DNA of 64,000 bases from an uncultured Acidobacteriota bacterium (GTDB lineage Bacteria; Acidobacteriota; Vicinamibacteria; Fen-336), in NCBI GenBank assembly GCA_902826455.1, contig CADEEV010000001.1:298983-362982 (forward strand), read 5' to 3'. The position numbers and the translations under genes were made by a program. Every line of letters begins with the position of its first letter. Position 1 is the stretch's first letter. Positions 11,793-37,182 of the stretch are shown here, piece by piece. The notes below the pieces were generated by a model. The model saw only the letters and a program-made list of their open reading frames with translations. It was not told the DNA's origin and searched no databases.

Positions 11793-11810
11793 GGCGCTGA
11801 TCCTAACTCC

Positions 11811-11855: not shown

Positions 11856-11880
11856 TGCTTGCGCTCGAAATGGTCCGAAG

Positions 11881-12214: not shown

Positions 12215-12230
12215 CGGATTTCCTATATCG

Positions 12231-12785: not shown

Positions 12786-12809
12786 CCCCATCGACGTAAG
12801 GAGGCTTCC

Positions 12810-21091: not shown

Positions 21092-22654
21092 GTGCATGAA
21101 ACCCTCCGAGGCCGCACAATCTCGGCCGTGAGTTCCCGCCCCGGAACGATTCCCCTCGAGGCGCAGAGCGGCCTCGATCCCTGGAAGCGCGCGGAGCTGC
21201 CGGCGCCGCCCGACACGCGCGGGCTGCGCATCCTCGGCATCGTGGGTCCGGGGGCGATCGTGCTGGGGGCGTCGATCGGCAGTGGCGAGTGGCTCGTCGG
21301 CCCCTCGACCGTCGTCAAGTACGGCCTGTCGCTGCTCTGGGTCACGGCGCTGGCCGTGACGTTCCAGACGATCTTCAACACCGAGGTCGTGCGCTACACG
21401 CTCTACACCGGCGAGCCCGCCTTCACCGGCTTCATGCGCACGTGGCCCGGGTCGCGGTTCTGGGCGTGGGTCTACGCGTGCCTGTACTTCCTCCAGAACG
21501 GCTGGCCTGGCTGGGCAGGCGCCTCCGCGGGCGCCGTGTTCTTCCTCTGCTTCGCACGGCCCGCGACGGCGGCCGACGCCGGAACGATCTACGCGATCGG
21601 TGTCGTCGCCTATCTGCTGTGCGTCGCGATCCTGCTCCTGGGTGGTCGCCGCATCGAGCGCACCATGGAGCTCCTCAACTGGGCTCTCGTCATCGGCATC
21701 CTGGGTACCCTGACGTTCCTGTGCCTGCGCTTCGCGCCGCCGTCGCGCTGGCTCGCGGCGCTCACGGGCTTCGCCGCCTTCGACATGCCCTCCGGCCAGT
21801 TCCGCCTGCTGCCGCCGGGAGCCGACTGGTTCCTGATCGGAGCGTTCGCGGCGTACTCGGGATGCGGCGGCGTCACGAACATCACGCTCTCGAACTGGGC
21901 TCGCGACAAGGGCTACGGCATGGGCCAGGTCGTCGGCTACATCCCGACCCTCGTCGCCGGGCACAAGGTTCCTCTCGCTCACACGGGCAGCGTGTTCGAG
22001 CCCGATGCCGCGGCCCTCGAGCGCTGGCGCGGCTGGTGGCGCATCGTGCGGGCCGACCAGTGGGGTATTTTCTTTCCGGGAGCGCTGCTCGGCATGGCGC
22101 TCCCGGCCATCCTCTACACGGCCTCGATCCCGTCGGGCACGGACCTGCGCGGCCTGGCGATCGCCTCGGAGCTGGCCCGCGCCCTGGCCGAGCGCGGCGG
22201 CCGGCTCCTGCCCCTCGTGCTCGCGGTGCTGAGCGTGTGGATCCTGTTCAAGGCCCAGCTCGACATCATGGAGGCGACGGTGCGCTCCCTGACCGACATC
22301 CTCTGGAGCGCGAGCCCCCGGGTGCGCCACTGGCGCGGCGGCGACGTGCGCGCGGTGTACTTCACGGTCCTCGCGACCCTCGTGACGTGGGGCCTGTTCG
22401 CCATGACCCTGACCCAGCCGATCGTGCTGCTGCAGCTCGCCGCGAACGTCGCCGGCTGCGTCATGGTGCTGGGCGCCCTCCACATCCGCCACGTGAACGC
22501 GACGCTGCTGCCGCCCGCCCTCAGGCCCTCGGCCCTGCGCCAGGCGGCCCTCGTCGCCATGGCCCTCTTTTACGGCGTGTTCGTCTGGCTCTGGCTGATG
22601 GGCGGCTTCATGCCCGATCCGGCCAAGGGCTTCCTCTTCGTCCTGTTCCGCTGA
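21092..22654 (+). CDS. Nramp-superfamily transporter, a divergent member with a non-canonical first-helix motif
   Basis: 11-12 TM. GPGAIVLGASIGSGEW...LLWV aligns to the Nramp GPG...DPGN...LLWV region, but DPGN is replaced by GSGE. GTG start. Confidence 0.7.
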   Translation: MHETLRGRTISAVSSRPGTIPLEAQSGLDPWKRAELPAPPDTRGLRILGIVGPGAIVLGASIGSGEWLVGPSTVVKYGLSLLWVTALAVTFQTIFNTEVVRYTLYTGEPAFTGFMRTWPGSRFWAWVYACLYFLQNGWPGWAGASAGAVFFLCFARPATAADAGTIYAIGVVAYLLCVAILLLGGRRIERTMELLNWALVIGILGTLTFLCLRFAPPSRWLAALTGFAAFDMPSGQFRLLPPGADWFLIGAFAAYSGCGGVTNITLSNWARDKGYGMGQVVGYIPTLVAGHKVPLAHTGSVFEPDAAALERWRGWWRIVRADQWGIFFPGALLGMALPAILYTASIPSGTDLRGLAIASELARALAERGGRLLPLVLAVLSVWILFKAQLDIMEATVRSLTDILWSASPRVRHWRGGDVRAVYFTVLATLVTWGLFAMTLTQPIVLLQLAANVAGCVMVLGALHIRHVNATLLPPALRPSALRQAALVAMALFYGVFVWLWLMGGFMPDPAKGFLFVLFR

Positions 22655-22712
22655 GGCTCGCTCCCCCCTTGCCGAGCCTGCGCGCCTCGCGATAGTAGGA
22701 TGACGGCATGGA

Positions 22713-23609
22713 GTGGGTCCGCGGTTGAAGACCTCGGTGCTGGACCGCATCGGCAACACGCCCCTGCTCCGTCTCGAGCTGCCGGGCCTGACGCGCCGGG
22801 TCGAAGTGTGGGGCAAGTGCGAATGGCACAACCCCGGCGGTTCCGTGAAGGACCGCACGGCCCTCTCCCTCGTGAACGAAGGCGAGCGCTCCGGCGCCCT
22901 GTATCGAGGCAAGACGATCCTCGACTCGTCGTCGGGGAACACGGCCGTAGGCCTCGCCCTCGTGGGACAGGCGAAGGGCCATCCCGTCGAGCTGCTCATG
23001 CCCGAGAGCGCCGCTGAACACCGCAAGGAGCGCTGCCGCGCGTACGGCGCCACCCTCACCTTCACCGACGCGTTCGCGGGCTCCGACGGAGCCATCCTCG
23101 AAGTGCGGCGCAAGGTGGCGGCCGAGCCGGAGCGCTACTTCTACGCGGACCAGTACCGCAATCCCGCGAACCCCCTGGCGCACTATCGCACCACGGGGCC
23201 CGAGATCTGGGAGCAGACGGGCGGCCGCGTCACGCATTTCGTCGCGGGCCTCGGGACCTCCGGCACGGTGATGGGCACGGGCCGCTTCCTGCGCGAGCGC
23301 AACCCCGCGGTGCGCGTGTGCGCGGTCGAGCCCGACGAGCCGTTGCACGGGCTCGAGGGCCTCAAGCACATGGCCTCGGCGATCGTGCCGGAGATCTACG
23401 ACCCGCGCGGCCACGACGAGCTCCTGACGATCGCGACCGAGGCCGCCTACGCCGAGCGCGAGAGCACACGGGCGCGCTCGGGCCTCGTCGTCGGCCATTC
23501 CGCGGCGGCGGCGATCGTGGCGGCCGGGCGCATCGCCCGGACGCTGACCGAGGGCGTGATCGTCGTCCTGTTGCCCGACCAGGGCGGCCACGAGGAGGGG
23601 CGCGCGTGA
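22713..23609 (+). CDS. cysM: Cysteine synthase (PLP-dependent; CysM type that uses a thiocarboxylated carrier)
   Basis: PLP-lysine region (GGSVKDR) and a GNT-type S(S)GNTA loop. Immediately followed by the mec and cysO homologues. Confidence 0.9.
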   Translation: MGPRLKTSVLDRIGNTPLLRLELPGLTRRVEVWGKCEWHNPGGSVKDRTALSLVNEGERSGALYRGKTILDSSSGNTAVGLALVGQAKGHPVELLMPESAAEHRKERCRAYGATLTFTDAFAGSDGAILEVRRKVAAEPERYFYADQYRNPANPLAHYRTTGPEIWEQTGGRVTHFVAGLGTSGTVMGTGRFLRERNPAVRVCAVEPDEPLHGLEGLKHMASAIVPEIYDPRGHDELLTIATEAAYAERESTRARSGLVVGHSAAAAIVAAGRIARTLTEGVIVVLLPDQGGHEEGRA

Positions 23610-24022
23610 GGATCCCCCGACAGGAAGCCGACGCCATGGTCGCGCGCGCCCTCGAGGGCTACCCCTTCGAGGTCTGCGGCGTGTTCCTCGGCCGGGGCGG
23701 CGACGTGCGGCGTGCCGTCGGCGTCGCGAACCGTGAGACCGAGCGGCCGCGCGTGCGCTATCAGATCGCCCCCGCGGATCTCATCCGTCTCCAGCGCGAG
23801 GGCGAGGCCGAAGGCCTGGAGATCGTGGGCTACTATCATTCCCATCCGGATCATCCCGCGCGGCCCTCGGAGACCGACCGGAGCGTGGCCGCGGGCGGGT
23901 TGTCCGACGGGGTATTCCACGTCGTGATCGGCGTCGAGCAGGGGATCCGGGGCACGCCCACGGCGTGGGTCTTCCGCGACGCGGATCAGGCGTTCCATGC
24001 CGAGCCGCTCGAGATCGAATAG
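23606..24022 (+). CDS. mec: JAMM/MPN+ metalloprotease Mec
   Basis: EVCGVFLG and the HSHPDHPARPSETD (H-x-H-x7-S-x2-D) JAMM zinc motif. The GTG start overlaps the cysM stop (GTGA). Confidence 0.85.
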   Translation: MRIPRQEADAMVARALEGYPFEVCGVFLGRGGDVRRAVGVANRETERPRVRYQIAPADLIRLQREGEAEGLEIVGYYHSHPDHPARPSETDRSVAAGGLSDGVFHVVIGVEQGIRGTPTAWVFRDADQAFHAEPLEIE

Positions 24023-24035
24023 GAGAAGAGAGTCC

Positions 24036-24314
24036 ATGGCGATTCGCGTCCAGGTTCCCGCGCCGTTGCGCTCGTTGACCGGTGGTGCCGCCGAGGTGAG
24101 CGTCGAGGCGAGCGACGTCGCGGGTCTCGTCGACGCCCTCGAGGCCTCCCACAAGGGCCTGCGCGATCGCCTGTACGACGCGAGCGGCGAGCTGCGCAGC
24201 TACGTGCGGGTGTTCGTGAACGAGGAGGACGTGCGCTTCCTGGGCGGCAAGGCGGCGCCGCTCAAGGCCGGTGACGTGGTCGCCATCGTGCCGGCGATCG
24301 CCGGCGGCCTCTAG
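24036..24314 (+). CDS. cysO: MoaD/ThiS-like sulfur carrier protein CysO
   Basis: 92 aa beta-grasp-sized protein ending ...AIAGGL (Gly-Gly plus one residue). AGGAGA RBS lies 8 nt upstream of the ATG. Confidence 0.8.
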   Translation: MAIRVQVPAPLRSLTGGAAEVSVEASDVAGLVDALEASHKGLRDRLYDASGELRSYVRVFVNEEDVRFLGGKAAPLKAGDVVAIVPAIAGGL

Positions 24315-24315
24315 T

Positions 24316-25224
24316 TCAGCGAGCGGGCTTCCGCGTGTACAGCAAGTCGTAGGCGACGCTCCACGTCTTGCCGCCGTCGGTCGAGTTCTCGCCGAGCTGG
24401 CGCACCGTGCCCTTCTGATCGAAGAAGGTCATCTTCTGCTGCGTCTTCGTGAGCTTCCCGTCGGGTCCCGGGATGAGGCTCTCGGCCAGATAGGCCATGG
24501 TGCCGTCAACGAAGCGGCCGTGGTACTCGGTGAGCGTCCCGCTCGAGTCCACCCAGGTCTGCCGCCACTCCTTCGTGGTGCTGTCCCAGATGTTGAAGCT
24601 CTTGCCCGTGACGCCTTGCGAGCCCGTCCAGTTCTCGTAGATGACGCAGTCGCCGAGCATGCGTTCCACGTGGCTCTCGCCCGCGAGCGCGCCGCTCGAC
24701 GTCACGTCCCAGTCTCCGATCCAGAAGTCGAACTGCCGGTGCTCGGGCGCGTACGCGCACGGCCGCGCGTTGCGGTCGGCCGCCTCGCGGACCGCGGCGA
24801 AGCGCTTGTCGGCGCGGAGCGGCGCGAAGTCGGCCTCGGTATCGAGCATGGAGACCTGGCCGAAGCCCCCGGCCGTGGCCTTGGTGAGCAGCGCGAGCGC
24901 GGCCTCCGTGTCGCCGGCACGCGCCAGGGCCCGGGCGGACCAGGCCTGCATCAAGGGTGGCGGAAACCCCAGGCTCGCGGCCGTCTCGAAGCGCGGCACC
25001 GCGTCCTTCGCGCGACCGAGAGCCAGCAGCGAGGCGCCGTGGCGAAACGCGTACATCGGGTTCTTCGGGGACTGGCTCGCGAGGGCCGCGTACGCGTCGG
25101 CCGCGCCCTTCCAGTCCTTCGCTTGATAGAGGCGATTCGCCTCGGAGGCATCCTCGGCACGGGCCGGCACACCCAACGTCATGAGACACACCACGATACC
25201 GAGACCGCCGATCCAGCGCTGCAT
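24316..25224 (-). CDS. Secreted TPR-like/DUF protein (hypothetical)
   Basis: 302 aa. Signal peptide, an N-terminal TPR-like helical region and a C-terminal conserved-looking beta domain. Confidence 0.7.
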   Translation of the reverse strand: MQRWIGGLGIVVCLMTLGVPARAEDASEANRLYQAKDWKGAADAYAALASQSPKNPMYAFRHGASLLALGRAKDAVPRFETAASLGFPPPLMQAWSARALARAGDTEAALALLTKATAGGFGQVSMLDTEADFAPLRADKRFAAVREAADRNARPCAYAPEHRQFDFWIGDWDVTSSGALAGESHVERMLGDCVIYENWTGSQGVTGKSFNIWDSTTKEWRQTWVDSSGTLTEYHGRFVDGTMAYLAESLIPGPDGKLTKTQQKMTFFDQKGTVRQLGENSTDGGKTWSVAYDLLYTRKPAR

Positions 25225-25385
25225 GAGTCCTCCTGAAGGCTCTTGTGGGTCACCGCTGGGGAGACTACGCCCGTGGCCGGGGCGGGACCATGAGCGCGGG
25301 GTGAGCGGTGGGTGAGGTGGGACCGTTGACGCGCCCCGTGGGCATCCCGTAGCGTGGGCGGGACGAACGGCTGGAGAGGGTTTGA

Positions 25386-25835
25386 ATGCGGGCAGTGGTG
25401 CAGCGGGTCAGGGAAGCGTCGGTCACGGTCGACGGCGTCGTCGTGGGGCGCATCGGCGCCGGGCTCCTGGTGCTCCTGGGAGTGGGCCAGGGCGACGCCC
25501 AGGCGGACGTCGAATACATCGCGGACAAGACGGCGAACCTGCGCATCTTCGAGGACGACGGGGGCCACATGAACCGTTCGGTCCGGGACGTGTCCGGCGC
25601 CGTGCTCGTCGTTTCCCAGTTCACGCTCTACGGCGATGCGCGCAACGGCCGCCGGCCCGGGTTCTCCTCGGCCGCGCCGCCGGAGGACGCCAATCGCCTG
25701 TACGAGGCCGTCGTCACGCGGCTGCGCGAGAGCGGTCTGCCCGTGGAAACCGGCAGCTTTCGCACGATGATGGACGTGGCCCTCGTGAACCATGGACCCG
25801 TCACGCTCCTGCTGGACAGCCGCAAGAATTTTTGA
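25386..25835 (+). CDS. dtd: D-aminoacyl-tRNA deacylase
   Basis: 149 aa; SQFTLY and NHGPVT motifs. Confidence 0.9.
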
Positions 25836-25854
25836 CCATGACACGCGTTTGGTC

Positions 25855-25876
25855 TTGACAGTCCTTCATTCTGTCA
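25855..25876 (+). promoter_or_regulatory. Putative promoter/operator upstream of the Rrf2 regulator gene
   Basis: TTGACA at 25855-25860, within the perfect inverted repeat TGACAG-N9-CTGTCA (25856-25876), about 30 nt upstream of the ATG at 25906. The region is locally AT-rich. Confidence 0.4.
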
Positions 25877-25905
25877 TCTAGTCTATCACTTCGATAGGCA
25901 TAGAT

Positions 25906-26355
25906 ATGAAAATTTCGCATCGGGGTCTCTACGCGCTCAAAGCGCTCGTTCACCTGGCCGCGGCCTACGAGCGCGGCCTCGTCAAGATCCACGAGATCGC
26001 CGAGCAGGAGGAGATCCCGGAGAAGTTCCTCGAGGGCATCCTCGTGACGCTCAAGAACGCGCGCGTCGTGAGCAGCCAGCGCGGCCGGGAGGGCGGCTAC
26101 CGCCTGCGCCGGCCTCCCGAGGAAATCGTCATGGGGGAAGTGGTCCGCATCGTGGACGGGCCGCTCGCGCCTTTCGGCGACGCCGTCGAGCTCCAGCATC
26201 GCATCCGCACCGAACCCCGGCAGGCCGGCCTGTTCCAGGTGTTCCTGGACGTGCGCAACGCGGCCTCCGCGATCCTCGACAAGACCACACTCGCCGACCT
26301 CGTCCAGCGCAACGCCCGTGTGCTGGCAGGTCGGGCCGTCAAGGGAGGGGCCTGA
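25906..26355 (+). CDS. Rrf2-family transcriptional regulator (CymR/IscR-like)
   Basis: 149 aa; Rrf2 wHTH (HRGLYALKALVHLA...IHEIAEQEEIPEKFLEGILVTLKNARVVSSQRGREGGYRL). Confidence 0.9.
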   Translation: MKISHRGLYALKALVHLAAAYERGLVKIHEIAEQEEIPEKFLEGILVTLKNARVVSSQRGREGGYRLRRPPEEIVMGEVVRIVDGPLAPFGDAVELQHRIRTEPRQAGLFQVFLDVRNAASAILDKTTLADLVQRNARVLAGRAVKGGA

Positions 26356-26376
26356 CGTCCGGCCGCGCTCGCTTCA

Positions 26377-26646
26377 ATGTCTATTACCCCGCTAGAGGTT
26401 AAAGACACTACGCCCGGCGAACCCCAGCCGGGGGAGAAGCGCGTCCTCGCCGCGCTGCGTGGCCTCCGCTTCGGCTCGGTCGAAGTGGTGGTCCACGACG
26501 GCCGCATCGTGCAGATCGAACGCCGCGAAAAGGTTCGCCTCGAAGACGCGGACCGCCGCTCGCCGGGCGACCGGAAGCGGGAACCGAACCACAACGGCCG
26601 GGCTGACCGGATCTCCGGAGGCGCCGTCCCGGAGACAGAAGAATGA
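26377..26646 (+). CDS. DUF2292 (YezD-like) small protein with a C-terminal extension
   Basis: Core LRGLRFGSVEVVVHDGRIVQIERREKVRL matches YezD/DUF2292. The stop overlaps the porin start (ATGA). Confidence 0.6.
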   Translation: MSITPLEVKDTTPGEPQPGEKRVLAALRGLRFGSVEVVVHDGRIVQIERREKVRLEDADRRSPGDRKREPNHNGRADRISGGAVPETEE

Positions 26647-27905
26647 AGACGTACACGACGTGGCTTGGCGCCGTTGCGGTCGGCTTCCTGCTGGCCAGCG
26701 GCACCGCCGGGGCTCAGGGCAAGCCAAAGGAAGAGGCGCCGAAGCCCGCGGGCGTCAAGGTCGCCGCCGGCTCGGACGGCTTCGCGTTCCAGTCCGAGAG
26801 CGGCGACTTCAAGGTCCAGATCCGTGGTCTCGTCCAGGCCGACGCCCGCTTCTACGCCTCGGACAAGGGCAAGCTGGGGACCGACACGTTCCTGCTCCGG
26901 CGCGCGCGGCCCATCGTCACCGGCTCGGCCGGCAAGTACTTCGAGTTCAACCTCACCCCCGACTTCGGCGGCGGCCAGGCCGTGATCCAGGACGCCTACG
27001 CGGACATCAAGTTCAACGCGGCCGCGCGCCTGCGCGCCGGCAAGTTCAAGCCGCCGATCGGCCTCGAGCATCTCCAGTCCGACCCGATCCTGCCCTTCGT
27101 GGAGCGCGCACTCGCCGCGAGCCTCGTCCCGAACCGCGACGTCGGGCTCCAGCTCTCGGGCGACCTGGGCGGCGGCGTCGTCTCCTACGCCGTGGGCGTC
27201 TTCAACGGCACGGCGGACGGGGGCAGCGTCGATCTCGACGTGAACGACGGCAAGGACGCGGTGGGCCGCTTGCTGTTCACGCCGTTCAAGAAGGGCCAGT
27301 CCCCCGCGAGCGGCCTGAGCTTCGGGATCGCGGGCTCGTCTGGCAAGCAGTCGGGCGCCCCGTCCGCGTATCGCACCGGCGGCCAGCTCTCGTTCTTCAG
27401 CTACGCCACGGGCGTCGTGGCCGAGGGCGATCGCAGCCGCCTCGCGCCTGAGCTCTCGTTCTTCCACGGGCCGGTCGCGATCATCGCGGAGTACGCCCGC
27501 TCGAAGGCCGGGATCAAGAAGACCGCCACCTCCGAGCGCCACTCGATCGAGGCCAGGGGCTGGCAGGCGACGGCGGGCTTCTTCCTCACGGGCGACACCG
27601 CGTCCTTCTCGAGCGTCAAGGTCAAGAAGCCCTTCGATCCGTCGAAGGGCCAGTGGGGCGGCTTCGAGCTCGTGGCCCGCGTCAACGCCCTCGAGATCGA
27701 CGACGACGCCTTCAGCCTGGGCCTCTCGGACATCACGAAGTCCGCGCGCAAGGCGACCGCCTGGGGCGTCGGATTCAACTGGTACGTCAACAACAACATC
27801 CGCCAGGCCATCTCGTACGAGCGGACCAGCTTCGATGGCGGCGCCGCCACGGGCGACCGGCCCGACGAGAACGCCCTCTTCATTCGCACCCAGCTTTCCT
27901 TCTAA
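26643..27905 (+). CDS. OprO/OprP-family anion-selective outer-membrane porin (in the sulfate-uptake operon)
   Basis: 420 aa; signal peptide; beta-barrel alternation; C-terminal F; family motifs shared with the oprP paralogue at 55042. Confidence 0.85.
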
Positions 27906-27927
27906 GGCTCGAAAGGAACCAAGGACC

Positions 27928-28935
27928 ATGAATTCGAATCGCAAGGCTTTCCTGGCCGTCGCGCTCGCCGTCGGCCTCGCACGCTCGGCATACGCCGCGG
28001 ACGCCACGCTCCTCAACGTCTCCTACGATCCCACCCGCGAGCTCTACTCGGAGTACAACGCCGCGTTCGCGAGGTACTGGCAGGGCAAGACCGGCAAGAC
28101 CGTGGAGATCCAGCAGTCCCACGGCGGCTCGGGCAAGCAGGCCCGCGCCGTGATCGACGGACTCGAAGCCGACGTCCTGACCCTCGCCCTCGCCTACGAC
28201 GTCGACGAGGTCGGCAAGAGCGGCCTGTTCGCCGCCGACTGGCAGAAGAAGCTCCCGAACAACAGCGCGCCCTACACCTCGACCATCGTGTTCCTCGTGC
28301 GCAAGGGCAACCCGAAGGGCATCAAGGACTGGAACGACCTCGTGAAGCCGGGCACCTCGGTCGTCACGCCCAACCCGAAGACCTCGGGCGGCGCTCGCTG
28401 GAACTATCTCGCGGCCTGGGGCTACGCGCTGCGTCAGCCCGGCGGCAACGAGCAGAAGGCCCGCGCGTTCGTCACGGCGCTCTTCAAGAACGTGCCGGTG
28501 CTGGACTCCGGCGCCCGCGGCTCGACGAACACGTTCGTGCAGCGCGGCATCGGCGACGTGCTGCTCGCGTGGGAGAACGAGGCCTACCTGTCGGTCAACG
28601 AGCTCGGCCCCGACAAGGTCGAGATCGTGACGCCGTCGGTGAGCATCCTGGCCGAGCCGCCCGTGGCGGTCGTGGACAAGGTCGTCGACAAGAAGGGCAC
28701 GCGCGCCGTGGCCCAGGCCTACCTCGAGTACCTGTACTCGCCCGAGGGCCAGGAGATCGCGGCCAGGCACTACTACCGCCCGCGCCTCGCGGCCGTGGCC
28801 CAGAAGTACGCGGGCCGCTTCGGCAAGGCGCCGCTGTTCACCATCGACGAGGTGTTCGGCGGCTGGGCGAAGGCCCAGAAGGCGCACTTCGACGACGGGG
28901 GAGTCTTCGACCAGATCTATCAGCCCTCGAAGTAA
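27928..28935 (+). CDS. sbp: Periplasmic sulfate/thiosulfate-binding protein
   Basis: Signal peptide; Sbp/CysP fold motifs ([29 protein letters not shown]). Start reassigned to MNSNRKAF. Confidence 0.9.
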
Positions 28936-28995
28936 ACGGAGAATCCGCAGGCTCTCGCGCCCGGCGGGCCTCGCGAAGCCTGCCGGGCCTCTTGT

Positions 28996-29853
28996 GTGTT
29001 GAGTGAGGTCACGGTCTTGTCCAGCGTCGTCCTGAAACGTCACAGCGTCCTCCCCGGCTTCGGGCTCACCGTGGGTTACACGCTGCTCTACCTGAGCCTC
29101 ATCGTCCTGCTGCCGCTCTCGACCCTCGCGTTCAAGAGCAGCTCCCTGGGCTTCGACGCGTTCTGGACCACGGTCAGCTCGGCGCGCGTCGTCGCGTCCT
29201 ACAAGCTGACGTTCGGCGCGTCGCTGGCTGCGGCCACGATCAACGCCTTCTTCGGCTTGATCGTCGCCTGGGTGCTCGCGCGCTACACCTTCCCCGGGCG
29301 CCGCCTCGTCGACGCCATCGTGGACCTGCCCTTCGCGCTGCCCACGGCCGTTGCGGGCATCGCGCTCACCACCCTGTACTCGGAGAACGGCTGGCTGGGC
29401 GCGCCCCTCGCGAGGATGGGCGTCAAGGTGGCGTTCACGCCCCTGGGCATCACCCTGGCCCTGACCTTCATCGGCCTGCCCTTCGTGGTGCGCACGCTGC
29501 AGCCCGTCATCGACGAGCTCGATCCCGAGCTCGAGGAGGCCGCGGCCAGCCTCGGCGCCTCGCGGGCCCAGACGCTGTTCCGCGTCGTGCTCCCGGCGCT
29601 GCTGCCGGCCTGGCTCACGGGCTTCGCCCTCGCCTTCGCGCGCTGCCTCGGCGAGTACGGCTCCGTCGTCTTCATCGCCGGCAACATGCCCATGCGCACC
29701 GAGATCACGCCGCTCCTGATCATCACGAAGCTCGAGCAGTACGACTATCCGGGCGCAACGGCCATCGCGGTGGTGATGCTCGTGGCGTCGTTCGTGCTGC
29801 TGCTCGGCATCAACCTCCTGCAGTCCTGGAGCGGCCGGAGGCTCGCGGCATGA
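28996..29853 (+). CDS. cysT: Sulfate ABC transporter permease CysT
   Basis: 6 TM; EAA-loop region ([21 protein letters not shown]). Confidence 0.9.
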
Positions 29854-30701
29854 AGCGGCGTGTGCTGACGGAGCCGAAGCCCGTGCGCGTGGCCCTGATC
29901 CTCGTGTCCCTCGCGTTCCTCGCCGTGTCCCTCGTGCTGCCCCTGGCGCTGGTGTTCGTCGAGGCCTTCTCCAAGGGTGCTGCCGCCTACGCCGCGGCGA
30001 TCCGCGAGCCCATGGCCCTGTCGGCCCTGAGGCTCACGCTGCTGACGGCCGCGATCGCGGTGCCGGCGAACCTGGTCTTCGGTCTCGCCGCATCGTGGGC
30101 CATCGCGAAGTTCGACTTCTGGGGCAAGAACGCCCTCATCACCCTCATCGACCTGCCGTTCGCCGTCTCGCCCGTGATCTCCGGGATGATCTTCATCCTG
30201 CTGTTCGGGCGACTCGGGACGTTCGGGCCGTTCCTCCAGGGCCACGACATCAAGATCGTCTTCGCGATTCCCGGCATCGTGCTCGCCACGGTCTTCGTGA
30301 CGTTCCCCTTCGTGGCCCGCGAGCTCATCCCTGTGATGCAGGCGAGCGGGTCCGAGGAGGAGGAGGCGGCCCGCGTGCTGGGCGCCAGCGGCTGGCAGCT
30401 GTTCTGGCGCGTCACGCTGCCCAACGTGAAGTGGGGGCTGCTCTACGGCGTGATCCTGTGCAACGCCCGGGCGATGGGCGAGTTCGGCGCGGTCTCCGTC
30501 GTGTCCGGCCACATCCGCGGCAAGACCAACACGCTGCCGCTCCACGTCGAGATCCTCTACAACGAATACCAGTTCCAGGCCGCCTTCGCGGCCGCGTCGC
30601 TCCTGGCGTTCCTGGCCCTCGTCACGCTGCTGGCCAAGAGCTTCATCGAGTGGCAGACCGGCCGGCGCGCGAGCGCCGGCTCCGTGGAGAACGAAGCATG
30701 A
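29850..30701 (+). CDS. cysW: Sulfate ABC transporter permease CysW
   Basis: 6 TM; EAA loop ([21 protein letters not shown]); ATGA-coupled to cysA. Confidence 0.9.
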
Positions 30702-31678
30702 GCATCGAAGCCCGCAACGTCACGAAGCGATTCGGCAGCTTCGTGGCCGTCGACGACGTGAGCCTCGTGTTTCCCGGGGGCGAGCTGACGGCGCTGCTCG
30801 GCCCGTCGGGCTCCGGCAAGACCAGCCTGCTGCGCATCATCGCAGGCCTCGAGCGCGCGGACGCCGGCCAGGTCCTCTTCGAGGGCGAGGACGCCACCGG
30901 GCGCGACGTGCGCCAGCGCGGCGTCGGCTTCGTGTTCCAGCACTACGCCCTGTTCCGGCACATGACGGTCTTCGACAACATCGCGTTCGGCCTGCGCGTG
31001 CGGCCGCGGGCACGCCGTCCCGGCGCCCCCGAGATCCGCGCGAAGGTCATGGACCTCTTGAAGCTGGTCCAGCTCGACTGGCTCGCGAACCGCTACCCGA
31101 GCGAGCTCTCGGGCGGACAGCGCCAGCGCGTGGCGCTCGCGCGCGCCCTGGCCGTCGAGCCCAAGCTTCTCCTGCTCGACGAGCCCTTCGGGTCCCTCGA
31201 CGCCAAGGTGCGCCTCGAGCTGCGGCGCTGGCTGCGCCGGCTCCACGACGAGATCAAGCTGACGAGCGTGTTCGTGACCCACGACCAGGAGGAGGCCCTC
31301 GAGGTGTCCGACCGTGTCGTCGTGATGAACAAGGGCCACGTCGAACAGGTCGGCTCGCCGCAGGAGGTCTTCGACCAGCCGAAGACCTCCTTCGTCATGA
31401 ATTTCCTCGGCCAGGTGAACGCCGTGAAGGGCGGCTACGTGCGGCCCCACGAGTTCGAGCTGGCGCGCTCGGCCGACGCGCCCGAGGGCTCGTGGGCCGA
31501 GGTCCGCCACATCCACATGGCGGGCGCCGTCGTGAAGCTCGAGCTCGTCGACGAGGCGAAGAACGTGCTGCTCGTCGAGATGAGCCGCGACCGCGCCGAC
31601 GCCCTCGCGCCCCGGGTCGGCGAGCGGCTGTTCGCGTGGCCGCGGCGGCTGCGGAGCTTCGAGGCCGCGACCGTCTAG
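30698..31678 (+). CDS. cysA: Sulfate ABC transporter ATP-binding protein CysA
   Basis: Walker [24 protein letters not shown] signature, Walker B LLLDEP, and a C-terminal TOBE-like domain. Confidence 0.9.
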
Positions 31679-32799
31679 CCCAGGGCCTGGGCCAGGTCGT
31701 CGATCAGATCTGCCTCGTTCTCGAGGCCGATCGACGCGCGCAGCAGCGTGTCGGGCGTCGTGGACGTCGGGCCTTCGCTCGAGCGCCGGTGCTCGATCAG
31801 GCTCTCGGTGCCCCCGAGGCTCGTGGCCACGGTGAACACCTTCAGGCGCGAGACGACGTCGACCGCGGCCGCGCGGCCGCCGCGGACGCGGAACGACAGC
31901 ATCCCGCCGAAGGCGCTCATCTGCCGCCGCGCCAGGGCGTGACCCGGGTCGGACGCGAGGCCCGGATAGTGGACGGCCTCGACGTTCGCATGCCCTTCGA
32001 GGGCCCGCGCGACGGCGAGGGCGTTCGCGGCATGGCGATCGACACGGCAGGCGAGGGTGCGCAGGCCGCGCAACACCAGCCAGGAGGCGAAGGGAGCCGC
32101 GACGCCCCCCAGCACCTTGCGGACGTGGAACGCCTCGTCGACCCAGGGGCCGCCCTTGCGGAACACGAGGGCGCCGCCGTGGACGTCGCCGTGGCCCCCG
32201 ATGAATTTCGTGGTCGAGTGCATCACGCAGTCGGCGCCGAGCTCGAGGGGCCGCTGCAGCACCGGCGTCGCGAAGGTGTTGTCGACGATCAGCGACGCGC
32301 CGCCGCCATGGGCGATGTCGGCGAGGGCTGCGATGTCCGCGATCTTCATGAGCGGGTTGGAGGGCGATTCGACGAACAGGAGCTTCGTCTCCTTCCGCAT
32401 CGCGCGCGCCACCGCGTCGAGGTCCGTCACGTCCACGAGGCTCGACGTGCCGCCCCAGCGCGGCAGGAACTCCGTCGCGATCGTGCGCACGTCGTAGTAG
32501 CCGTCGTCGGCCACGATGACGTGGGAGCCCGGCGGCAGCGCCTGCATCGCCGTGGCCGCCGCGGCCAGGCCCGACGCGAACGCGAGGGCCACCTCGCCCG
32601 ACTCCACCGCCGCGAGGGCGGTCTCGAGCCGGGCCTGGGTCGGGTTGCTCTCGCGGATGTAGTAGTGGTCGTGGATCCGCTCGGACTCCGGGCCGTGGAC
32701 GAACGTCGTCGACAGGTGGATCGGGGGCGCGACGGCCCCCGTATCGGGGTCGGGCTCGGCCCCGGCGTGGACTGCGATCGTCTCGAAGCGCTTCACCAT
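31675..32799 (-). CDS. Cys/Met-metabolism PLP enzyme (cystathionine gamma-lyase / gamma-synthase family)
   Basis: Start reassigned to [16 protein letters not shown]-lysine region ([12 protein letters not shown]); family-wide conservation. Confidence 0.85.
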
Positions 32800-33293
32800 G
32801 TGTCGCTCCCGGTGGGCGGAGGCCAGATCCCGAGCATCCGCCGCACGAAGGCCACCTGGCCGAGGTGGTAGCTGTTGTGGACGACCGTCTGGTGCAGCAC
32901 CTCGCGCACGGTCGAGCCCTGGTTCGCGTAGTTCTCGGTGTCGACGCTCGCCACCGTGCGCTCGAGCGCCGCCGGGTCGCGGCTCAAGGCCGCCATCTCG
33001 TCGAGCAGGACGCGGTAGCGGCCGAGCGTCGCGTCCCATTCGCCGGCTCGCGGCACGGCACCTGCCGGCCAGCTCTCCGCGGCATGCTCGGGATAGACCG
33101 GCGCCTGGCCGGCCATGCGCCGCAGCTCGTAGTCGATCCAGTAGTTGATGTGGGCCACGAGCTGGAAGATCGAGTTCGGCGCGCCTGCGGGCAGGGCGCC
33201 CGCGAGCTCGCTGCTCACGCCTTCGACGATCGCGCGGGCGTCGGTGTGAGCGCCGCCGCCGTAGATGAGCTCCGTCAGCACCGGTTCGTTCAC
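32793..33293 (-). CDS. DinB/DinB_2-family metal-dependent protein
   Basis: 166 aa; DinB-like four-helix histidine pattern (H..H..H); 7-bp overlap with the downstream PLP enzyme gene. Confidence 0.7.
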
Positions 33294-33313
33294 CGGGGCA
33301 GTATATTCGCGGG

Positions 33314-33709
33314 ATGACGAGACAGAACTTCGCTACCGGCACTCCCTGGGAGCCCATCGTGGGCTACTCGCGCGCCGTGCGCGTGGGCAACGTCGTGCAC
33401 GTGGCCGGCACGACCGCCACCGCCGAGGACGGGACGATCGTGGGTATCGGGGATGCCTACGCCCAGGCCATCCAGGTCCTGAAGAACATCGACAGCGCCT
33501 TGAAGCGCGCCGGAGCCCGGCTCGAGGACGTGGTCCGGACCCGCATGTTCGTCGTGAACATCGCGGCCGACTGGGAGAAGGTGGGCCGGGCCCACGGCGA
33601 GTACTTCAGCGCCATCCGGCCCGTCACGAGCATGCTCGAAGTCAAGGGTTTGATCTCGCCGGAGATCCTCGTGGAGATCGAGGCCGAGGCGATCGTCGTC
33701 TCCGACTAG
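33314..33709 (+). CDS. ridA: RidA (YjgF/TdcF) reactive enamine/imine deaminase
   Basis: 131 aa; RidA family signature (PAR...VEIEA region, conserved Arg). Confidence 0.9.
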
Positions 33710-33823
33710 GTCCGCCCCGAAGTCGCTGACGGCAGAGCGCTTCGCCGCCTATCGACTGCCGAGGTAGATTCCACCGCGCGTCCATGGAGTTGGGCGTCGC
33801 GGCCGCCCTACATTCGGCGCGAC

Positions 33824-34297
33824 ATGGCAACACTCTGCGCCAACCCCTGGGCGCGCCTCAGGTCTCCCTTCGACGTCGCCGCCGGAGTCCTGGGGGGCCG
33901 ATTGACGGCCCCGATCCTCTGGACCTTGTTCTGGGGTGGTAAACGGTTCTTCCAGATCCTCCGGGATCTGCAGCAGGTCCCCCGTCGCACGCTGGCGGAA
34001 CGCCTCCTCGAGCTCGAGAACGTCGGGCTCGTCGAGCGCCGCTTCGGACGTCTCGACAAGGACGGCGTCGAGTACGCGCTGACCGAGCTGGGTGAGTCGC
34101 TGAAGCCCATCCTCGCGGGCATGTACCACTGGGGACTGACGACGGCGGTTCGGGCCGATGCGGCCCGCCTCTTGACCGCCTGTGAACCGACCCGAGGTCC
34201 GAGAGCCGAGCACACCCGGCCCGACGAGGCTTGCGCCTCGCTCGAGGCTGCTGGCCGGGTCCCGTCGCCGTTCCCGGTGATCGAGACCCACGACTGA
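33824..34297 (+). CDS. HxlR-family wHTH transcriptional regulator
   Basis: C-x..GG.W...ILW.L motif (GGRLTAPILWTLFWGGKRFFQILRDL). Confidence 0.75.
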   Translation: MATLCANPWARLRSPFDVAAGVLGGRLTAPILWTLFWGGKRFFQILRDLQQVPRRTLAERLLELENVGLVERRFGRLDKDGVEYALTELGESLKPILAGMYHWGLTTAVRADAARLLTACEPTRGPRAEHTRPDEACASLEAAGRVPSPFPVIETHD

Positions 34298-34323
34298 CGT
34301 TCCTTTCGATCGGAGCAGTGCTC

Positions 34324-37182
34324 ATGACCAAGAGATTCGGGCCCATCCTGGCCCTGTTGCTGGCCCTCGCGCCGGCGGCCTTCGCGCAGTCGACAGGCAA
34401 CATCTACGGCGCCGTCAACGACGAACAGGGCGCCACCATGCCCGGCGCCAGCATCACGCTCTCGGGCGAGAACATCGCCACCCGCAGCGTCGTCAGCGGT
34501 ACTCAGGGCGAGTTCCGTTTCATCGGCCTCGATCCCGGTACGTACCGTCTCGCCGTCGCCCTCGCCGGCTTCGGCACCGTCAACCGCGACATCGTGGTGA
34601 ACGCCGGCAGCAGCGTCACGCTGTCCTTCCCGCTCAAGGTGGCGACGGTCCAGGAGACCGTCACCGTCACCGCCGAGACCCCGGTCCTCGATCCCAAGAA
34701 GACCGGGACCTCGACGACGCTCTCGCGCGAGGAGCTCGCGCAGATTCCCAACTCCCGCGACCCCTGGGCCGTGCTGCGCACCGTTCCCGGCGTGCTCGTG
34801 GACCGCGTCAACACGGCCGGCACCGAGAGCGGCCAGCAGTCGGGCTTCGTGGGCAAGGGCTCGGTGCAGCAGGACGCCATGTGGACGCTGGACGGCGTCA
34901 CGATCAGCGACCCCGGCGCCGCGGGCTCGAGCCCGACCTACTTCGACTTCGACGCCTTCGACGAGGTGAACGTCACGACGGGCGGCGCCGACGTGCGCGT
35001 CGCCTCGGGCGGCGTCGGCCTCAACCTGATCACGAAGCGCGGCACGAACGCGTTCCACGGCGGAATCTCGGGCTTCTTCGCCCACGACAAGCTGCAGTCG
35101 TCCAACCTGCCCGAGGAGCTCGAGGGCGATGCGCGCCTCCTGGGCGGCGACAAGGCCGACCACGCCGACCAGATCTCCGACTACGGCTTCGACCTCGGCG
35201 GCCCGGTCATCAAGGACAAGATGTGGTTCTGGGGCTCTTACGGGAAGCAGGACCTGCGCATCCGCCGCCTCAACCAGGTCCCCGACAAGACGCTCCTCAA
35301 GAGCCTGTCCGCGAAGCTCAACTGGCAGGTCGCGGAGAACAACACGTTCTCGGTCTACTACTTCAACGGCGCCAAGGAGAAGTTCGGCCGGCCCGCGTCG
35401 GCGCTGTCCGAGGACGCCTCCCACAGCCGCGACCAGGGCAACGCCTATCCCGGCTGGCTCCACGGCTTCGTGAAGGTCGAGGACAACCACGTGCTGAGCT
35501 CGAACTTCATGATGAACCTCAAGTACGCGTACTACGGCTCGGGCTTCAGCCTCGTGCCCCAGGGCGGGACCGACGGCGACGAGTTCCTCGACTCGGTCGC
35601 GGGCGTCGCCCGCGGCTCCTCGAACTTCTACCAGTCCCTGCGGCCGCAGCACACGGCCAACGCCGACTTCAGCTACTTCCGCGGCAAGCACGAGTTCAAG
35701 TTCGGCTTCGGGTACCGCCAGGCCTCGGTCAGCAGCACCACGGCTCCCTCGGGCAGCAAGGTGTCGGCCCAGGTGTCCCCGGTGCTCGGCCGCATCGCCG
35801 TCGTGCAGCGCGACCAGGTCACGGCCTACAGCGGCAAGTACCTGAGCGGCTACGTGGGCGACACGTTCACGACCGATCGCCTGACCCTGAACCTAGGCGT
35901 GCGCTACGACCGGCAGACCGCGAGCAACAAGCCCACGACGGCGATCGCCAACCCGCTGTTCCCGGGCGTGCTCCCGGATCTGACCTATGACGGCAACGGC
36001 ACGGGCATCGAGTGGAGCGACTTCTCGCCGCGCGGCTCGATCACCTACGCCCTCGACGAGGGCCGCAAGACCCTCGTGCGCGCCTCCGTGGCGCGCTTCG
36101 CCGGCCAGCTCGCGTTCTCCGACGCCTCCATGGACAACCCCATCGGCGGCATCGGCTCGCGCACCTACGGCTGGAGCGACCTGAACGGCGACAACTTCGT
36201 GCAGGGCGGCGAGGTGGACCTGTCGGAGGAGCTGGCGCTGCCGGTCAACGCCGAGCTGTTCTCGGTCAACCGCATCGACCCCGACTACAAGGCCACCCAC
36301 GACACGGAGTTCATCGTCGGCCTGGATCGTGAGCTGGCGCCCAACTTCGCGCTCTCCCTCGCGTACACCTACCGCAAGTCCACGAACCAGATCTACGCGC
36401 CGTTCATCGGCCTCTCCAGCAGCGACTGGGTGCCGATCGCCCCGACGTCCGCGAACGGCTACACCGCGACCGGCTTCGACCTGACGCCCGAGGCCTACGC
36501 GCGCCTCCAGGCCAACGACTTCGGACGCATCCTCAAGAACCGTCCCGGCTACTCGCGCAGCTTCAAGGGCGCCGAGGCCACGCTGCTCAAGCGCCTCTCC
36601 AACAAGTGGATGGCGCGCGCGTCGTTCTCGTACAACGACTGGCAGCAGCACTACGACGGCACCGAGGGCCTCTTCAATCCGAACGCCGCGGTCTACGACA
36701 GCTACGGGCTCTCGCCCGTGGGCCAGACGATCGCCTCGGACACGGGCATCGACGGCGACCAGATCGCGATCTACAGCTCGGGCTCGGGGACGTTCTACTG
36801 GGTCAACGGCAAGTGGCAGATGTCCGCCACGGCGCTCTACCAGCTCCCTGCCGGCTTCGAGGTGGCGGCGAACCTGTTCGGCCGCCAGGGCTACGCGCGG
36901 CCGATCAACCTGACCCTCGACAACACGTTCTTCGACACGGTGCTGGCCCAGGGCCGGATCGACTCCAAGCGTCTCGACAACGTGTGGAACCTCGACCTGC
37001 GCCTCAACAAGAACTTCAAGTTCGGAAGCCGCGTGGGGGCCTCGCTCATGGCCGACGTGTTCAACGTCTTCAACGCGAACACGGTGCTGCGTCGCACGGA
37101 CAACGCGGACGGCCGCATCGACCGCGTGCAGCAGATCATGAACCCCCGCATCGCACGCCTCGGCCTGAAGCTGACGTTCTAG
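34324..37182 (+). CDS. TonB-dependent receptor-like outer-membrane protein with an N-terminal CarboxypepD_reg domain
   Basis: Signal peptide, then a CarboxypepD_reg domain (GNIYGAVNDEQGATMPGASITLSG...TQGEFRFIGLDPGTYRL). Plug and barrel motifs follow; the protein ends in the C-terminal Phe-type residue F. Start at ATG 34324 within the 983 aa track ORF. Confidence 0.8.
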   Translation: MTKRFGPILALLLALAPAAFAQSTGNIYGAVNDEQGATMPGASITLSGENIATRSVVSGTQGEFRFIGLDPGTYRLAVALAGFGTVNRDIVVNAGSSVTLSFPLKVATVQETVTVTAETPVLDPKKTGTSTTLSREELAQIPNSRDPWAVLRTVPGVLVDRVNTAGTESGQQSGFVGKGSVQQDAMWTLDGVTISDPGAAGSSPTYFDFDAFDEVNVTTGGADVRVASGGVGLNLITKRGTNAFHGGISGFFAHDKLQSSNLPEELEGDARLLGGDKADHADQISDYGFDLGGPVIKDKMWFWGSYGKQDLRIRRLNQVPDKTLLKSLSAKLNWQVAENNTFSVYYFNGAKEKFGRPASALSEDASHSRDQGNAYPGWLHGFVKVEDNHVLSSNFMMNLKYAYYGSGFSLVPQGGTDGDEFLDSVAGVARGSSNFYQSLRPQHTANADFSYFRGKHEFKFGFGYRQASVSSTTAPSGSKVSAQVSPVLGRIAVVQRDQVTAYSGKYLSGYVGDTFTTDRLTLNLGVRYDRQTASNKPTTAIANPLFPGVLPDLTYDGNGTGIEWSDFSPRGSITYALDEGRKTLVRASVARFAGQLAFSDASMDNPIGGIGSRTYGWSDLNGDNFVQGGEVDLSEELALPVNAELFSVNRIDPDYKATHDTEFIVGLDRELAPNFALSLAYTYRKSTNQIYAPFIGLSSSDWVPIAPTSANGYTATGFDLTPEAYARLQANDFGRILKNRPGYSRSFKGAEATLLKRLSNKWMARASFSYNDWQQHYDGTEGLFNPNAAVYDSYGLSPVGQTIASDTGIDGDQIAIYSSGSGTFYWVNGKWQMSATALYQLPAGFEVAANLFGRQGYARPINLTLDNTFFDTVLAQGRIDSKRLDNVWNLDLRLNKNFKFGSRVGASLMADVFNVFNANTVLRRTDNADGRIDRVQQIMNPRIARLGLKLTF

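Follow-up and report, generated by a model that had tools for sequence, protein, structure and literature searches.

How does sulfate cross the bacterial outer membrane on its way to a dedicated ABC transporter? This step is usually left to "general porins", and a locus in the DNA of an uncultured, soil-type acidobacterium raises the possibility of a channel made for the purpose. The sequence analysed here is a 64-kb stretch of contig CADEEV010000001.1 with a G+C content of ~70%, referred to below as the window. Between positions 25855 and 31678 of its + strand, seven genes follow each other in the order rrf2, DUF2292, porin, sbp, cysT, cysW and cysA, and the porin is a member of the OprO/P family. 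Phosphate selectivity is the defining functional feature of that family, and the sulfate-operon context of this member appears to contradict it. An initial annotation of the locus had proposed that the porin belongs functionally to sulfate uptake; this proposal is supported by a synteny of porin and sbp genes that crosses phyla, and by the absence of sulfur amino acids from the porin, Sbp and the DUF2292 protein. We regard the locus with high confidence as a sulfate uptake operon and the porin as its likely dedicated outer-membrane component. That this channel would prefer sulfate over phosphate is a sequence-based prediction which we consider evenly balanced.

A porin gene within a sulfate uptake operon

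Genes were assigned from open reading frame calls and from Pfam and NCBIfam profile matches, judged against the cut-offs of the respective families. The first gene, rrf2 (25906-26355, + strand throughout), encodes a predicted winged-helix repressor of 149 amino acids (PF02082, 113.9 bits, cut-off 30; TIGR00738, 115.5 bits, cut-off 73.3). It is followed by a YezD/OscA-like DUF2292 gene (26377-26646; 89 amino acids; PF10055, 62.3 bits, cut-off 22) and by the porin gene (26643-27905), whose product of 420 amino acids matches Porin_O_P over the entire model (PF07396, 128.1 bits, cut-off 20.9, model positions 1-370 of 370). The periplasmic sulfate-binding protein Sbp (335 amino acids) is encoded at 27928-28935; it scores 556.6 bits with the sulfate model PRK10752 (cut-off 288) and 351 bits, hence less, with the model of the thiosulfate-binding protein CysP. 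The two permease subunits are encoded by cysT (28996-29853; TIGR02139, 414.9 bits, cut-off 246.1) and cysW (29850-30701; TIGR02140, 405.7 bits, cut-off 329.1), and the ATPase by cysA (30698-31678). CysA passes its subfamily model (TIGR00968, 386.9 bits, cut-off 342.75), remains under the cut-off of the enterobacterial equivalog model (401.9 bits against 502) and carries a TOBE-like domain at its C terminus (PF12857, TOBE_3).

The order of the seven genes on one strand is as originally described, and so are the stop/start overlaps, each of them an ATGA, between DUF2292 and porin (26643-26646), cysT and cysW (29850-29853) and cysW and cysA (30698-30701). The remaining junctions measure 21 nucleotides (rrf2/DUF2292), 22 nucleotides (porin/sbp) and 60 nucleotides (sbp/cysT). 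The sbp gene itself was correctly recognised, with its start placed three nucleotides too far upstream; the ATG lies at 27928, not at 27925. The dtd, Rrf2 (149 amino acids), DUF2292 (89 amino acids) and porin (420 amino acids) genes agree with an independent public gene call on a short contig of identical sequence. These data support a compact, same-strand sulfate-acquisition unit, and the seven genes are presumably co-transcribed.

In Escherichia coli and Salmonella, the orthologous genes of the CysB-regulated sulfate-thiosulfate transporter (sbp/cysPTWA) have the same order of Sbp, CysT, CysW and CysA. The acidobacterial locus differs in having no CysB-type LysR activator and in adding an Rrf2 repressor, a DUF2292 protein and an outer-membrane channel.

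Linkage of porin and sbp genes across bacteria

If the porin lies next to a sulfate transporter by chance, it may be no more than an OprO/P-type channel for phosphate or for anions in general. The full-length match to PF07396 fits that explanation, and public sources do indeed label relatives of this porin "phosphate-selective porin". Gene order in related genomes, a comparison which the initial annotation had suggested, bears directly on it. Homologues, 24 in number, were aligned, one genome per species was scanned across bacteria and archaea, 80 loci (numbered with the prefix L below) were fetched, and the seven window proteins were placed on them by tblastn. Linkage was counted over the 72 of these 80 loci with a near-full-length porin match; four more with the same order (L040, L057, L069 and L070) were excluded from the count owing to a frameshift or truncation in their porin match.

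In 51 of the 72 loci, sbp follows immediately 3′ of the porin gene, and in three further loci (L041, L051 and L056) the porin lies beside sbp-cysTWA in another gene order. All porin relatives with at least 45% identity are linked to sbp wherever their contig extends far enough. Linked porins occur in Acidobacteriota (Vicinamibacteria, Thermoanaerobaculia and Holophagales), Latescibacterota, Verrucomicrobiota, Kiritimatiellia, Myxococcota (including the isolate Corallococcus terminator), Gammaproteobacteria (Luteimonas and Methylococcaceae), Elusimicrobia, Binatia and others. The arrangement of porin and then sbp is thus far beyond chance. In a neighbour-joining tree of the porins, the branching broadly follows taxonomy and sbp linkage is spread throughout the clade, a pattern better explained by an ancient association that has been maintained than by a local accident.

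The explanation by chance adjacency has therefore to contend with a linkage found in many phylum-level lineages and in every close relative, as well as with the translational coupling and the presumed common promoter that join the porin to the sulfate genes in the window. It gains little from the unlinked members of the clade, where none of the ten flanking genes scanned is related to phosphate. Those ten genes encode an amidase, a Rieske/FMN reductase, a MacB-type permease, an AAA ATPase and P-II, or give no match, and are uninformative.

Several of the fetched loci have features of their own. The clade also has members in L038 and L048 (Omnitrophota; 7700-12000), where an amidase and a Rieske/FMN-reductase protein, not sbp, come behind the porin, which may have been recruited for another small solute. 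Metagenome-assembled genomes (MAGs) of Nitrospira and Nitrospirae contain two to three porin paralogues head to tail, with no sulfate transporter nearby (L061, 8001-12357; L062, 8001-10651). In one public gene call of 541 amino acids, P0106, DUF2292 and Porin_O_P domains occur together, probably because the call reads through the overlapping genes and not because they are truly fused. In Thermoanaerobaculia and Holophagales (L013-L026 and others), a CysA-like ATPase of 624-638 amino acids, fused to a universal-stress-protein domain, is encoded 5′ of DUF2292-porin-sbp-cysTW (~5500-7400), and a HAMP-PAS histidine kinase follows cysW (~12000-14100).

Sulfur-free composition of the porin

Proteins made in bulk under sulfur starvation tend to be poor in methionine and cysteine. 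After the initiator residue, neither amino acid occurs in the porin (0 of 419 residues), in Sbp (0 of 334) or in the DUF2292 protein (0 of 88), whereas 14 other proteins of the neighbourhood, leaving aside the 92-residue CysO, contain 0.7-3.3% Met + Cys. The comparison extends to an outer-membrane protein, a TonB-dependent receptor of 953 residues encoded in the same neighbourhood, which has 11 Met. At the rate of that receptor, 419 residues without sulfur would arise with a probability of 0.008, and at a rate of 2% with a probability of 2e-4.

The same tendency is seen among relatives. Porins linked to sbp have a median of 0.49% sulfur residues, with none at all in 14 of 51, as compared with 1.01% in unlinked porins, of which none (0 of 16) is sulfur-free; the differences are significant (Mann-Whitney p = 2.3e-4; Fisher p = 0.013) in tests that ignore the shared ancestry of the loci. 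A porin that is free of Met and Cys, as Sbp is, supports the view that it is a sulfur-starvation protein, and neither its composition nor the lower sulfur content of linked porins is what an ordinary channel placed by chance would lead one to expect.

Porin fold and channel residues

Sequence and fold alike place the porin firmly within the OprO/P family; the transporter is canonical. Its AlphaFold model (mean pLDDT 79) has 16 long strands and an N-terminal hairpin, and the top Foldseek matches are OprP (2o4v) and OprO (4rjw) with E = 4e-20, TM scores of 0.69-0.70 and ~20% identity; general porins follow far behind. A signal peptide ending in AGA-QG and a C-terminal Phe are visible by eye. The mature protein contains 22 Arg and 24 Lys, and this sum of 46 is close to the 47 Arg + Lys quoted for OprP/O (PMC5877670). 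With the phosphate-specific OprP and diphosphate-specific OprO of Pseudomonas aeruginosa it thus shares the PF07396 family, a 16-stranded barrel with an inward-folded loop 3 and richness in Arg and Lys, and also an encoding together with the ABC uptake system of its presumed substrate, presumably under starvation induction. It differs in being only ~20% identical to them, in its linkage to sbp-cysTWA instead of phosphate genes, and in being Met/Cys-free.

The residues that bind phosphate in OprP are D94, Y62, S124, S125, K121, K126, R34 and R133 (PMC5877670). OprP residues were mapped onto the window porin and 50 sbp-linked relatives through HMMER alignments at ~20% identity, that is, by sequence alignment alone, and the pore-lining positions discussed here are putative ones assigned by homology. 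Several are kept: OprP R59 and R60 correspond to R86 and R87 (conserved in 47 and 45 of the 50 relatives, respectively), D94 to D117 (48 of 50), S124 to S146 (43 of 50) and R133 to R155 (46 of 50). At K121 the window has H143, where 47 of 50 relatives have Arg. The equivalents of S125, K126 and R34 are not kept, being D147, P148 and L63 in the window; relatives have Ala, Gly or Asp at the first, Thr or Pro at the second, and Tyr or Leu at the third, with an Arg two residues earlier.

The most distinctive changes concern Tyr62 and Tyr114 of OprP (Phe62 and Asp114 in OprO), which are replaced by the near-invariant Arg89 and Lys136 of the window porin (conserved in 49 and 48 of 50 relatives). These are the positions jointly mutated in the OprO structure 4rjx (F62Y/D114Y), and a table in a review describes a double mutation that inverts phosphate/diphosphate specificity (PMC12653301). 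The two additional basic residues would suit the retuning of the channel to a dianion that is fully ionised and carries no proton. We also considered Arg89 and Lys136 as a signature of sbp-linked porins and rejected this, as they are equally present in 14 of the 16 unlinked members.

In favour of an ordinary phosphate or general anion channel are the fold matches, the retained R59, R60, D94 and R133 equivalents and the conduction of several anions reported for OprP in the review table (PMC12653301). Set against the conserved linkage and the sulfur-free composition, we consider this view improbable and continue to favour a dedicated component of sulfate uptake.

A second alternative concerns breadth. 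The channel might serve other tetrahedral oxyanions, such as thiosulfate, selenate, molybdate or chromate, with sulfate as one substrate of several. Sulfate ABC systems and Sbp-type proteins handle related oxyanions, which agrees with this alternative, and OscA relatives, to which the DUF2292 protein is similar, are tied to chromate stress. The sole NCBIfam match of the porin points in the same direction: it is to ExtI (NF040900), a protein of Geobacter sulfurreducens connected with selenite and tellurite reduction (PMC5877670). As an OprO/P-like protein assigned, by context and genetics, to a group-16 oxyanion, ExtI comes nearest to a precedent; it is a distant relative and is itself annotated as a phosphate porin. 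The match amounts, however, to 26.7 bits against an equivalog cut-off of 150, and the gene surroundings of ExtI are those of a cytochrome cluster that serves respiration or detoxification rather than assimilatory uptake. The binding protein of the window is, moreover, Sbp-like rather than CysP-like by its scores (556 against 351 bits), and no feature of the locus points to selenium or molybdenum metabolism. A broader channel is accordingly a tentative option, and we retain sulfate as the presumed substrate.

One further element of the porin stands out by its conservation. Residues 192-205 (window 27216-27257) form a near-invariant Asp-rich loop (D192, D197, D199, D202 and K204) that resembles calcium-binding DxDxDG loops. 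Confidence of the model is low in this loop, and the aligned region of OprP and OprO is also rich in Asp.

Putative promoter and operators

The initial annotation had drawn attention to a palindrome, TGACAG-N9-CTGTCA. The element is present, at 25856-25876 (+ strand); its role as an operator is not upheld. It occurs as a single copy in the window even when two mismatches are allowed, shuffled sequences give 1.24 matches, and its right arm is absent from all orthologous promoters. We judge it to be a chance combination of a -35 box with a non-conserved partner and have rejected it as an operator. The conserved half is the putative -35 hexamer TTGACA (25855-25860, + strand), which lies at a conserved distance from the operator described next in orthologous rrf2 upstream regions, TTGACA(G) being kept at the same spacing in L002-L010, L057 and L068-L070.

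A different palindrome, which we call O1 (TAGTCTATCACTTCGATAGGCAT; 25879-25901, + strand; core CTATC-N5-GATAG at 25883-25897), is kept in position in at least 11 orthologous promoters, 17-18 nucleotides 3′ of the -35 box. These sites are of the type CCTATC-N5-GATAGG, with the symmetric consensus TATCCTATCGAATCGATAGGATA from 11 loci. O1 overlaps the putative -10 hexamer TAGTCT (25879-25884) and the predicted transcript start, and ends ~5 nucleotides before the rrf2 ATG. A matrix built from the 11 orthologous O1 sites gives O1 as the top match of the window (27.8 bits), and a second site, O2 (ATGTCTATTACCCCGCTAGAGGT; 26377-26399, + strand), as the runner-up with 12.3 bits. O1 and O2 are the only matches above 7 bits in the 64 kb; the third-best reaches 6.4 bits, and a score at the level of O2 is expected by chance 0.07 times per 64 kb under a first-order Markov null. 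Repression of the operon by Rrf2 at O1 is, on these grounds, likely.

O2 begins on the ATG of DUF2292, 21 nucleotides 3′ of the rrf2 stop, and could owe its conservation to something other than protein binding. It might reflect a conserved N-terminal peptide (MS-x-x-S/T-V/I-D) or a preference for AT-rich, unstructured 5′ codons, with O1 alone regulating the operon. Public DUF2292 homologues do often start with MSI or MSS..VD, rrf2 likewise begins with AT-rich codons, and a score of 12.3 bits is low. On the other side, an element aATGTCTAsTA-N5-AGTAGA, palindromic and of the same half-site type as O1, lies right behind rrf2 in 11 rrf2-linked acidobacterial relatives, where the matrix made from O1 sites only finds it at the same place; in a twelfth locus (L001), where rrf2 was not detected, it stands 5′ of the porin gene. 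Loci in which the frame behind it extends for just 9-16 codons or is interrupted by stops still have the element (L009, L068 and L004). In the window, furthermore, its codons are rarely used (0-3%): TCT accounts for 1 of 133, CTA for 0 of 246 and ACT for 0 of 114 occurrences in reference genes with 94.5% G+C at third codon positions (GC3). Conservation in the absence of an intact frame, together with the rare codons, leads us to read O2 as a DNA element and probably as a second operator, an assignment we favour by a modest degree; the peptide or codon explanation is the weaker candidate, though one of some weight. Among Vicinamibacteria loci without a tblastn match to DUF2292, L004 was tested for such a gene; the frame starting from the O2 ATG was dismissed, since it contains stop codons and no more than a degenerate remnant came out of a profile search.

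Beyond the operon, the initial annotation had regarded Rrf2 as a candidate master regulator of the nearby cysM-mec-cysO and cystathionine-lyase genes. This claim was dropped. Neither type of site is found near them, and matrix scores upstream of cysM, mec, cysO, the lyase gene, dinB/ridA and hxlR are negative at best within the window. Allowing one mismatch, CTATC-N5-GATAG has a single other match in the window, at 24479, within a coding region. In the absence of any operator outside this operon in the window, a local "master regulator" is unsupported.

Operators of the same type recur elsewhere. In L042, an operator-like site (25.8 bits) precedes DUF2292-porin-sbp-cysTWA with no rrf2 nearby. 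In Verrucomicrobiota and Kiritimatiellia, such a site lies between a second rrf2 and cysH-cysD-cysN, by a cysK-like gene for a pyridoxal phosphate (PLP) enzyme. The individual loci are L028 (12937-17167), L031 (13083-17172) and L036 (13201-17179), where the cysK-like gene and a second, Cys-poor rrf2 are found 3′ of cysA, followed by an operator-like palindrome (18-24 bits) and then by cysH, with cysD and cysN after it in L036. Genes for sulfate uptake and reduction appear to share one operator type in these groups. Control of the porin-sbp core differs in other lineages: the loci of Thermoanaerobaculia and Holophagales have no Rrf2 operator.

The Rrf2 regulator

Rrf2 of the window contains no Cys, and neither do 16 of the 17 listed Vicinamibacteria-type orthologues, the one in L010 having a single Cys. 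The description of the protein as "CymR-type" in the initial annotation holds in part: the protein is Cys-free and CymR is the best named NCBIfam subfamily model (NF047409), and yet the score of 97.4 bits stays well under the equivalog cut-off of 195. The closest solved structures are IscR of Thermincola (4cic) and CymR (3t8r and 2y75). Like CymR of Bacillus and Staphylococcus, this is an Rrf2-family protein without cluster-binding Cys that would repress sulfur acquisition genes; unlike CymR, it is encoded inside the operon that it is predicted to control, has another palindromic operator, and has a regulon which, as seen within 64 kb, consists of its own operon.

Could Rrf2 nevertheless work as CymR does, repressing only in complex with a cysteine synthase (CysK or CysM) and being released by O-acetylserine? 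The absence of Cys, which leaves no cluster ligation through Cys, and the CymR-like model and structure matches agree with such a mechanism, as does the second Cys-poor rrf2 of Verrucomicrobiota and Kiritimatiellia by its cysK-like PLP enzyme gene and the operator before cysHDN. The low score relative to the equivalog cut-off speaks against it. In addition, O1 seems to differ from the Bacillus CymR box, a 27-bp element, and no cysK is adjacent in the window, where the nearby cysM is that of a CysO-type pathway and lacks the operator. The mechanism itself is established in Bacillus, where DNA binding by CymR is stimulated by CysK and relieved by O-acetylserine (PMC3828012, PMC9239247 for the CymR-CysK-OAS mechanism; PMC3828012 for the two effects). 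We consider its operation here possible, though less likely than not.

A different origin of the Cys-free form is suggested by operon-linked Rrf2 proteins of Latescibacterota, Verrucomicrobiota, Kiritimatiellia, Binatia and a Rickettsiales MAG. These carry a motif C-x8-C-x2-C-x5/6-C in the region that corresponds to FGDAVELQHRIRTEPRQAGLF of the window Rrf2. Their genes (L015, L019, L025, L027, L028, L031, L036, L053 and L054) lie directly 5′ of DUF2292 or the porin, with that of L053 divergently oriented. The motif suggests that they represent a metal- or Fe-S-sensing form of the same sulfate-operon regulator. A cysteine-liganded, possibly Fe-S sensor is thus likely to have lost its cysteines in this acidobacterial lineage, and this loss was probably independent of that in CymR.

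The DUF2292 protein

The initial annotation held that DUF2292 has no known function. This needs qualification, as the nearest NCBIfam model is OscA, named there as a sulfur starvation response protein, and an oscA-sbp unit has been published. The window protein scores 55.6 bits with the OscA model (NF033785), below the cut-off of 85, and belongs to DUF2292 without qualifying as an OscA equivalog. According to two later papers, oscA of Pseudomonas corrugata forms a transcription unit with sbp (Viti 2009, via PMC2996968, PMC3596284), is induced by chromate and by sulfur starvation, and is needed for Cr(VI) resistance (PMC2996968, PMC3596284). The Pseudomonas oscA-sbp-cysTWA genes therefore resemble the window operon in having a DUF2292 gene within a sulfate uptake unit, with oscA directly 5′ of sbp and co-transcribed with it (PMC2996968, PMC3596284). 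In the window, by contrast, the porin lies between DUF2292 and sbp, rrf2 leads the unit, and the protein has a basic, disordered tail.

It had also been proposed, from the coupling of the two genes, that DUF2292 acts together with the porin, possibly as an envelope accessory. The evidence argues otherwise. No signal peptide and no membrane segment are visible by eye, for which reason the protein is taken as cytoplasmic. Although the gene, present in 27 of the 80 loci, is always directly 5′ of the porin or, in L041, of sbp, many closely related Vicinamibacteria operons lack it and retain rrf2-porin-sbp-cysTWA, and in Pseudomonas oscA accompanies sbp in a unit for which no porin is reported. Since DUF2292 occurs in operons without the porin and vice versa, the ATGA coupling reflects co-expression with the uptake genes and not a partnership with the porin.

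The conserved core of the protein is L-x-A-L-x-G-L-R-F-G-S-V-E-I-V-V-H-D-G-R-I-V-Q-I-E-R-R-E-K-V-R, which AlphaFold models as a helix and a beta-hairpin (pLDDT ~88), followed by a disordered basic tail of 35 residues. A sequence search of the Protein Data Bank (PDB) gave no match, and the best Foldseek matches, MazE and AbrB, had E > 3 and were dismissed as evidence. Domain fusions, which might have hinted at a partner, are absent among the detected homologues, 268 of 268 being stand-alone proteins. Tentatively, and with low confidence, we suppose that this small cytoplasmic protein modulates either the transporter or the regulatory response to sulfur starvation.

A model for the locus

We favour, as probable, a mechanism in which this Vicinamibacteria-like genome acquires sulfate through an operon read from a single promoter. 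The Cys-free Rrf2 repressor would bind O1 over the -10 box and the transcript start, and would thereby silence rrf2 itself together with the six following genes. O2, at the junction of rrf2 and DUF2292, would be a weaker site that probably tightens the repression of the uptake genes by roadblock or looping. With scarcity of sulfur as the presumed signal, repression would lift, and the OscA-like cytoplasmic protein, a trimeric anion channel of the OprO/P type, Sbp and CysTWA would be made. Sulfate would then pass through the channel across the outer membrane, be bound by Sbp in the periplasm and be imported by CysTWA. The porin, Sbp and the DUF2292 protein, which are expected to be abundant, are free of sulfur amino acids, and their production would cost no sulfur.

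Several points weigh against this scheme. Around 16 of the 72 near-full-length clade members stand in other contexts, and the clade is not exclusively linked to sulfate. Arg89 and Lys136 occur in 14 of the 16 unlinked clade porins and thus mark the clade, not the linkage, and shared ancestry enters the sulfur-content comparison as stated above. On the side of regulation, O2 has a low score in the window and lies inside a coding sequence, to whose conservation an N-terminal peptide or AT-rich, translation-favouring 5′ codons could contribute. The promoter call is based on cross-species conservation; a generic sigma-70 scan reported no promoter, and the -10 hexamer TAGTCT is weak.

A more extensive proposal joins both halves of the argument. 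There may be a broad sulfate-selective class of the OprO/P fold, marked by Arg and Lys at the 4rjx positions, free of sulfur and encoded with Sbp-CysTWA, and alongside it a dual-operator Rrf2 sulfate regulon whose four-Cys sensor, found in Verrucomicrobiota, Latescibacterota and others, became secondarily Cys-free in Vicinamibacteria. For this combination we see the chances as equal either way.

Further features of the operon and its neighbourhood

The only terminator-like site seen on the + strand of the operon lies in the sbp-cysT gap (28959-28988), where a GC-rich hairpin of 11 pairs is followed by CTCTTGTGTGTT; its minimum free energy (MFE) is -32.3 kcal/mol, with a weak z score of -1.8. 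Hairpins behind sbp are common in relatives (10 of 37 with z < -2), and their sequence is not conserved. To produce more binding protein than permease is a common device, and the hairpin could serve it by terminating part of the transcripts or by stabilising the mRNA, with more porin and Sbp than permease as the result. The recurrence of such hairpins is consistent with a higher output of binding protein and porin, a weak indication. Right behind the sbp stop in L002, L003, L005 and L006 is a conserved hairpin, GGGGGCGC-TGTGCC-GCGCCCCC, whose sequence is unlike that of the window hairpin. No Rfam element was found in 22000-34500 at E ≤ 0.1.

At its 3′ end, the operon meets a convergent gene of the cystathionine gamma-synthase/lyase family (- strand), the stop codons of cysA and this gene overlapping at 31675-31678, which leaves zero intergenic room for terminators on either strand. 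At the 5′ end, dtd, encoding a D-Tyr-tRNA deacylase (25386-25835), lies upstream of the rrf2 promoter. It is found directly 5′ of this promoter also in L004, L010, L057 and L070 (Vicinamibacteria), with no obvious connection to sulfur.

Further upstream, a cysM-like PLP enzyme, a JAB/Mec-type protease (PF14464) and a MoaD/ThiS-like, CysO/SAMP-like carrier are encoded at 22713-24314 (+ strand). This is a cluster for cysteine synthesis by way of a sulfur-carrier protein, of the kind familiar from Mycobacterium, and it has no Rrf2 operator upstream. The CysO-like carrier likewise has no Met or Cys past its initiator. Directly 5′ of the cluster is a gene for a multi-pass membrane protein of 520 amino acids (21092-22654, + strand) that matches no Pfam family at E ≤ 1; a transporter not yet characterised, linked to the CysO-type cysteine pathway, is one possible identity. 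A protein of 302 amino acids (24316-25224, - strand), encoded between the cysO-like gene and dtd, shows weak matches to TPR at its N terminus and to DUF1579 at its C terminus, all below the Pfam cut-offs.

Implications

A search of full-text literature found no account of an OprO/P-like porin in a sulfate operon or of a "sulfate porin", subscription literature being outside this search. What appears to be new is a predicted sulfate-dedicated subtype of a known porin family, together with a predicted new design of Rrf2 operator and regulon. The porin clade is large, comprising 1738 clusters at 50% identity (E ≤ 1e-30). Were it sulfate-selective, it would be the sulfur counterpart of OprP, and the widespread label "phosphate-selective porin", which distorts the inference of phosphorus and sulfur acquisition from soil and freshwater metagenomes, would be corrected. 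The clade would also constitute a natural experiment, in which an arginine-ladder channel has been retuned from phosphate to sulfate. With the conserved operator, sulfur regulons could be mapped in Acidobacteriota and Verrucomicrobiota, two groups that show no evident CysB-type control, and sulfur-free composition provides a simple, sequence-only marker for further sulfur-starvation proteins.

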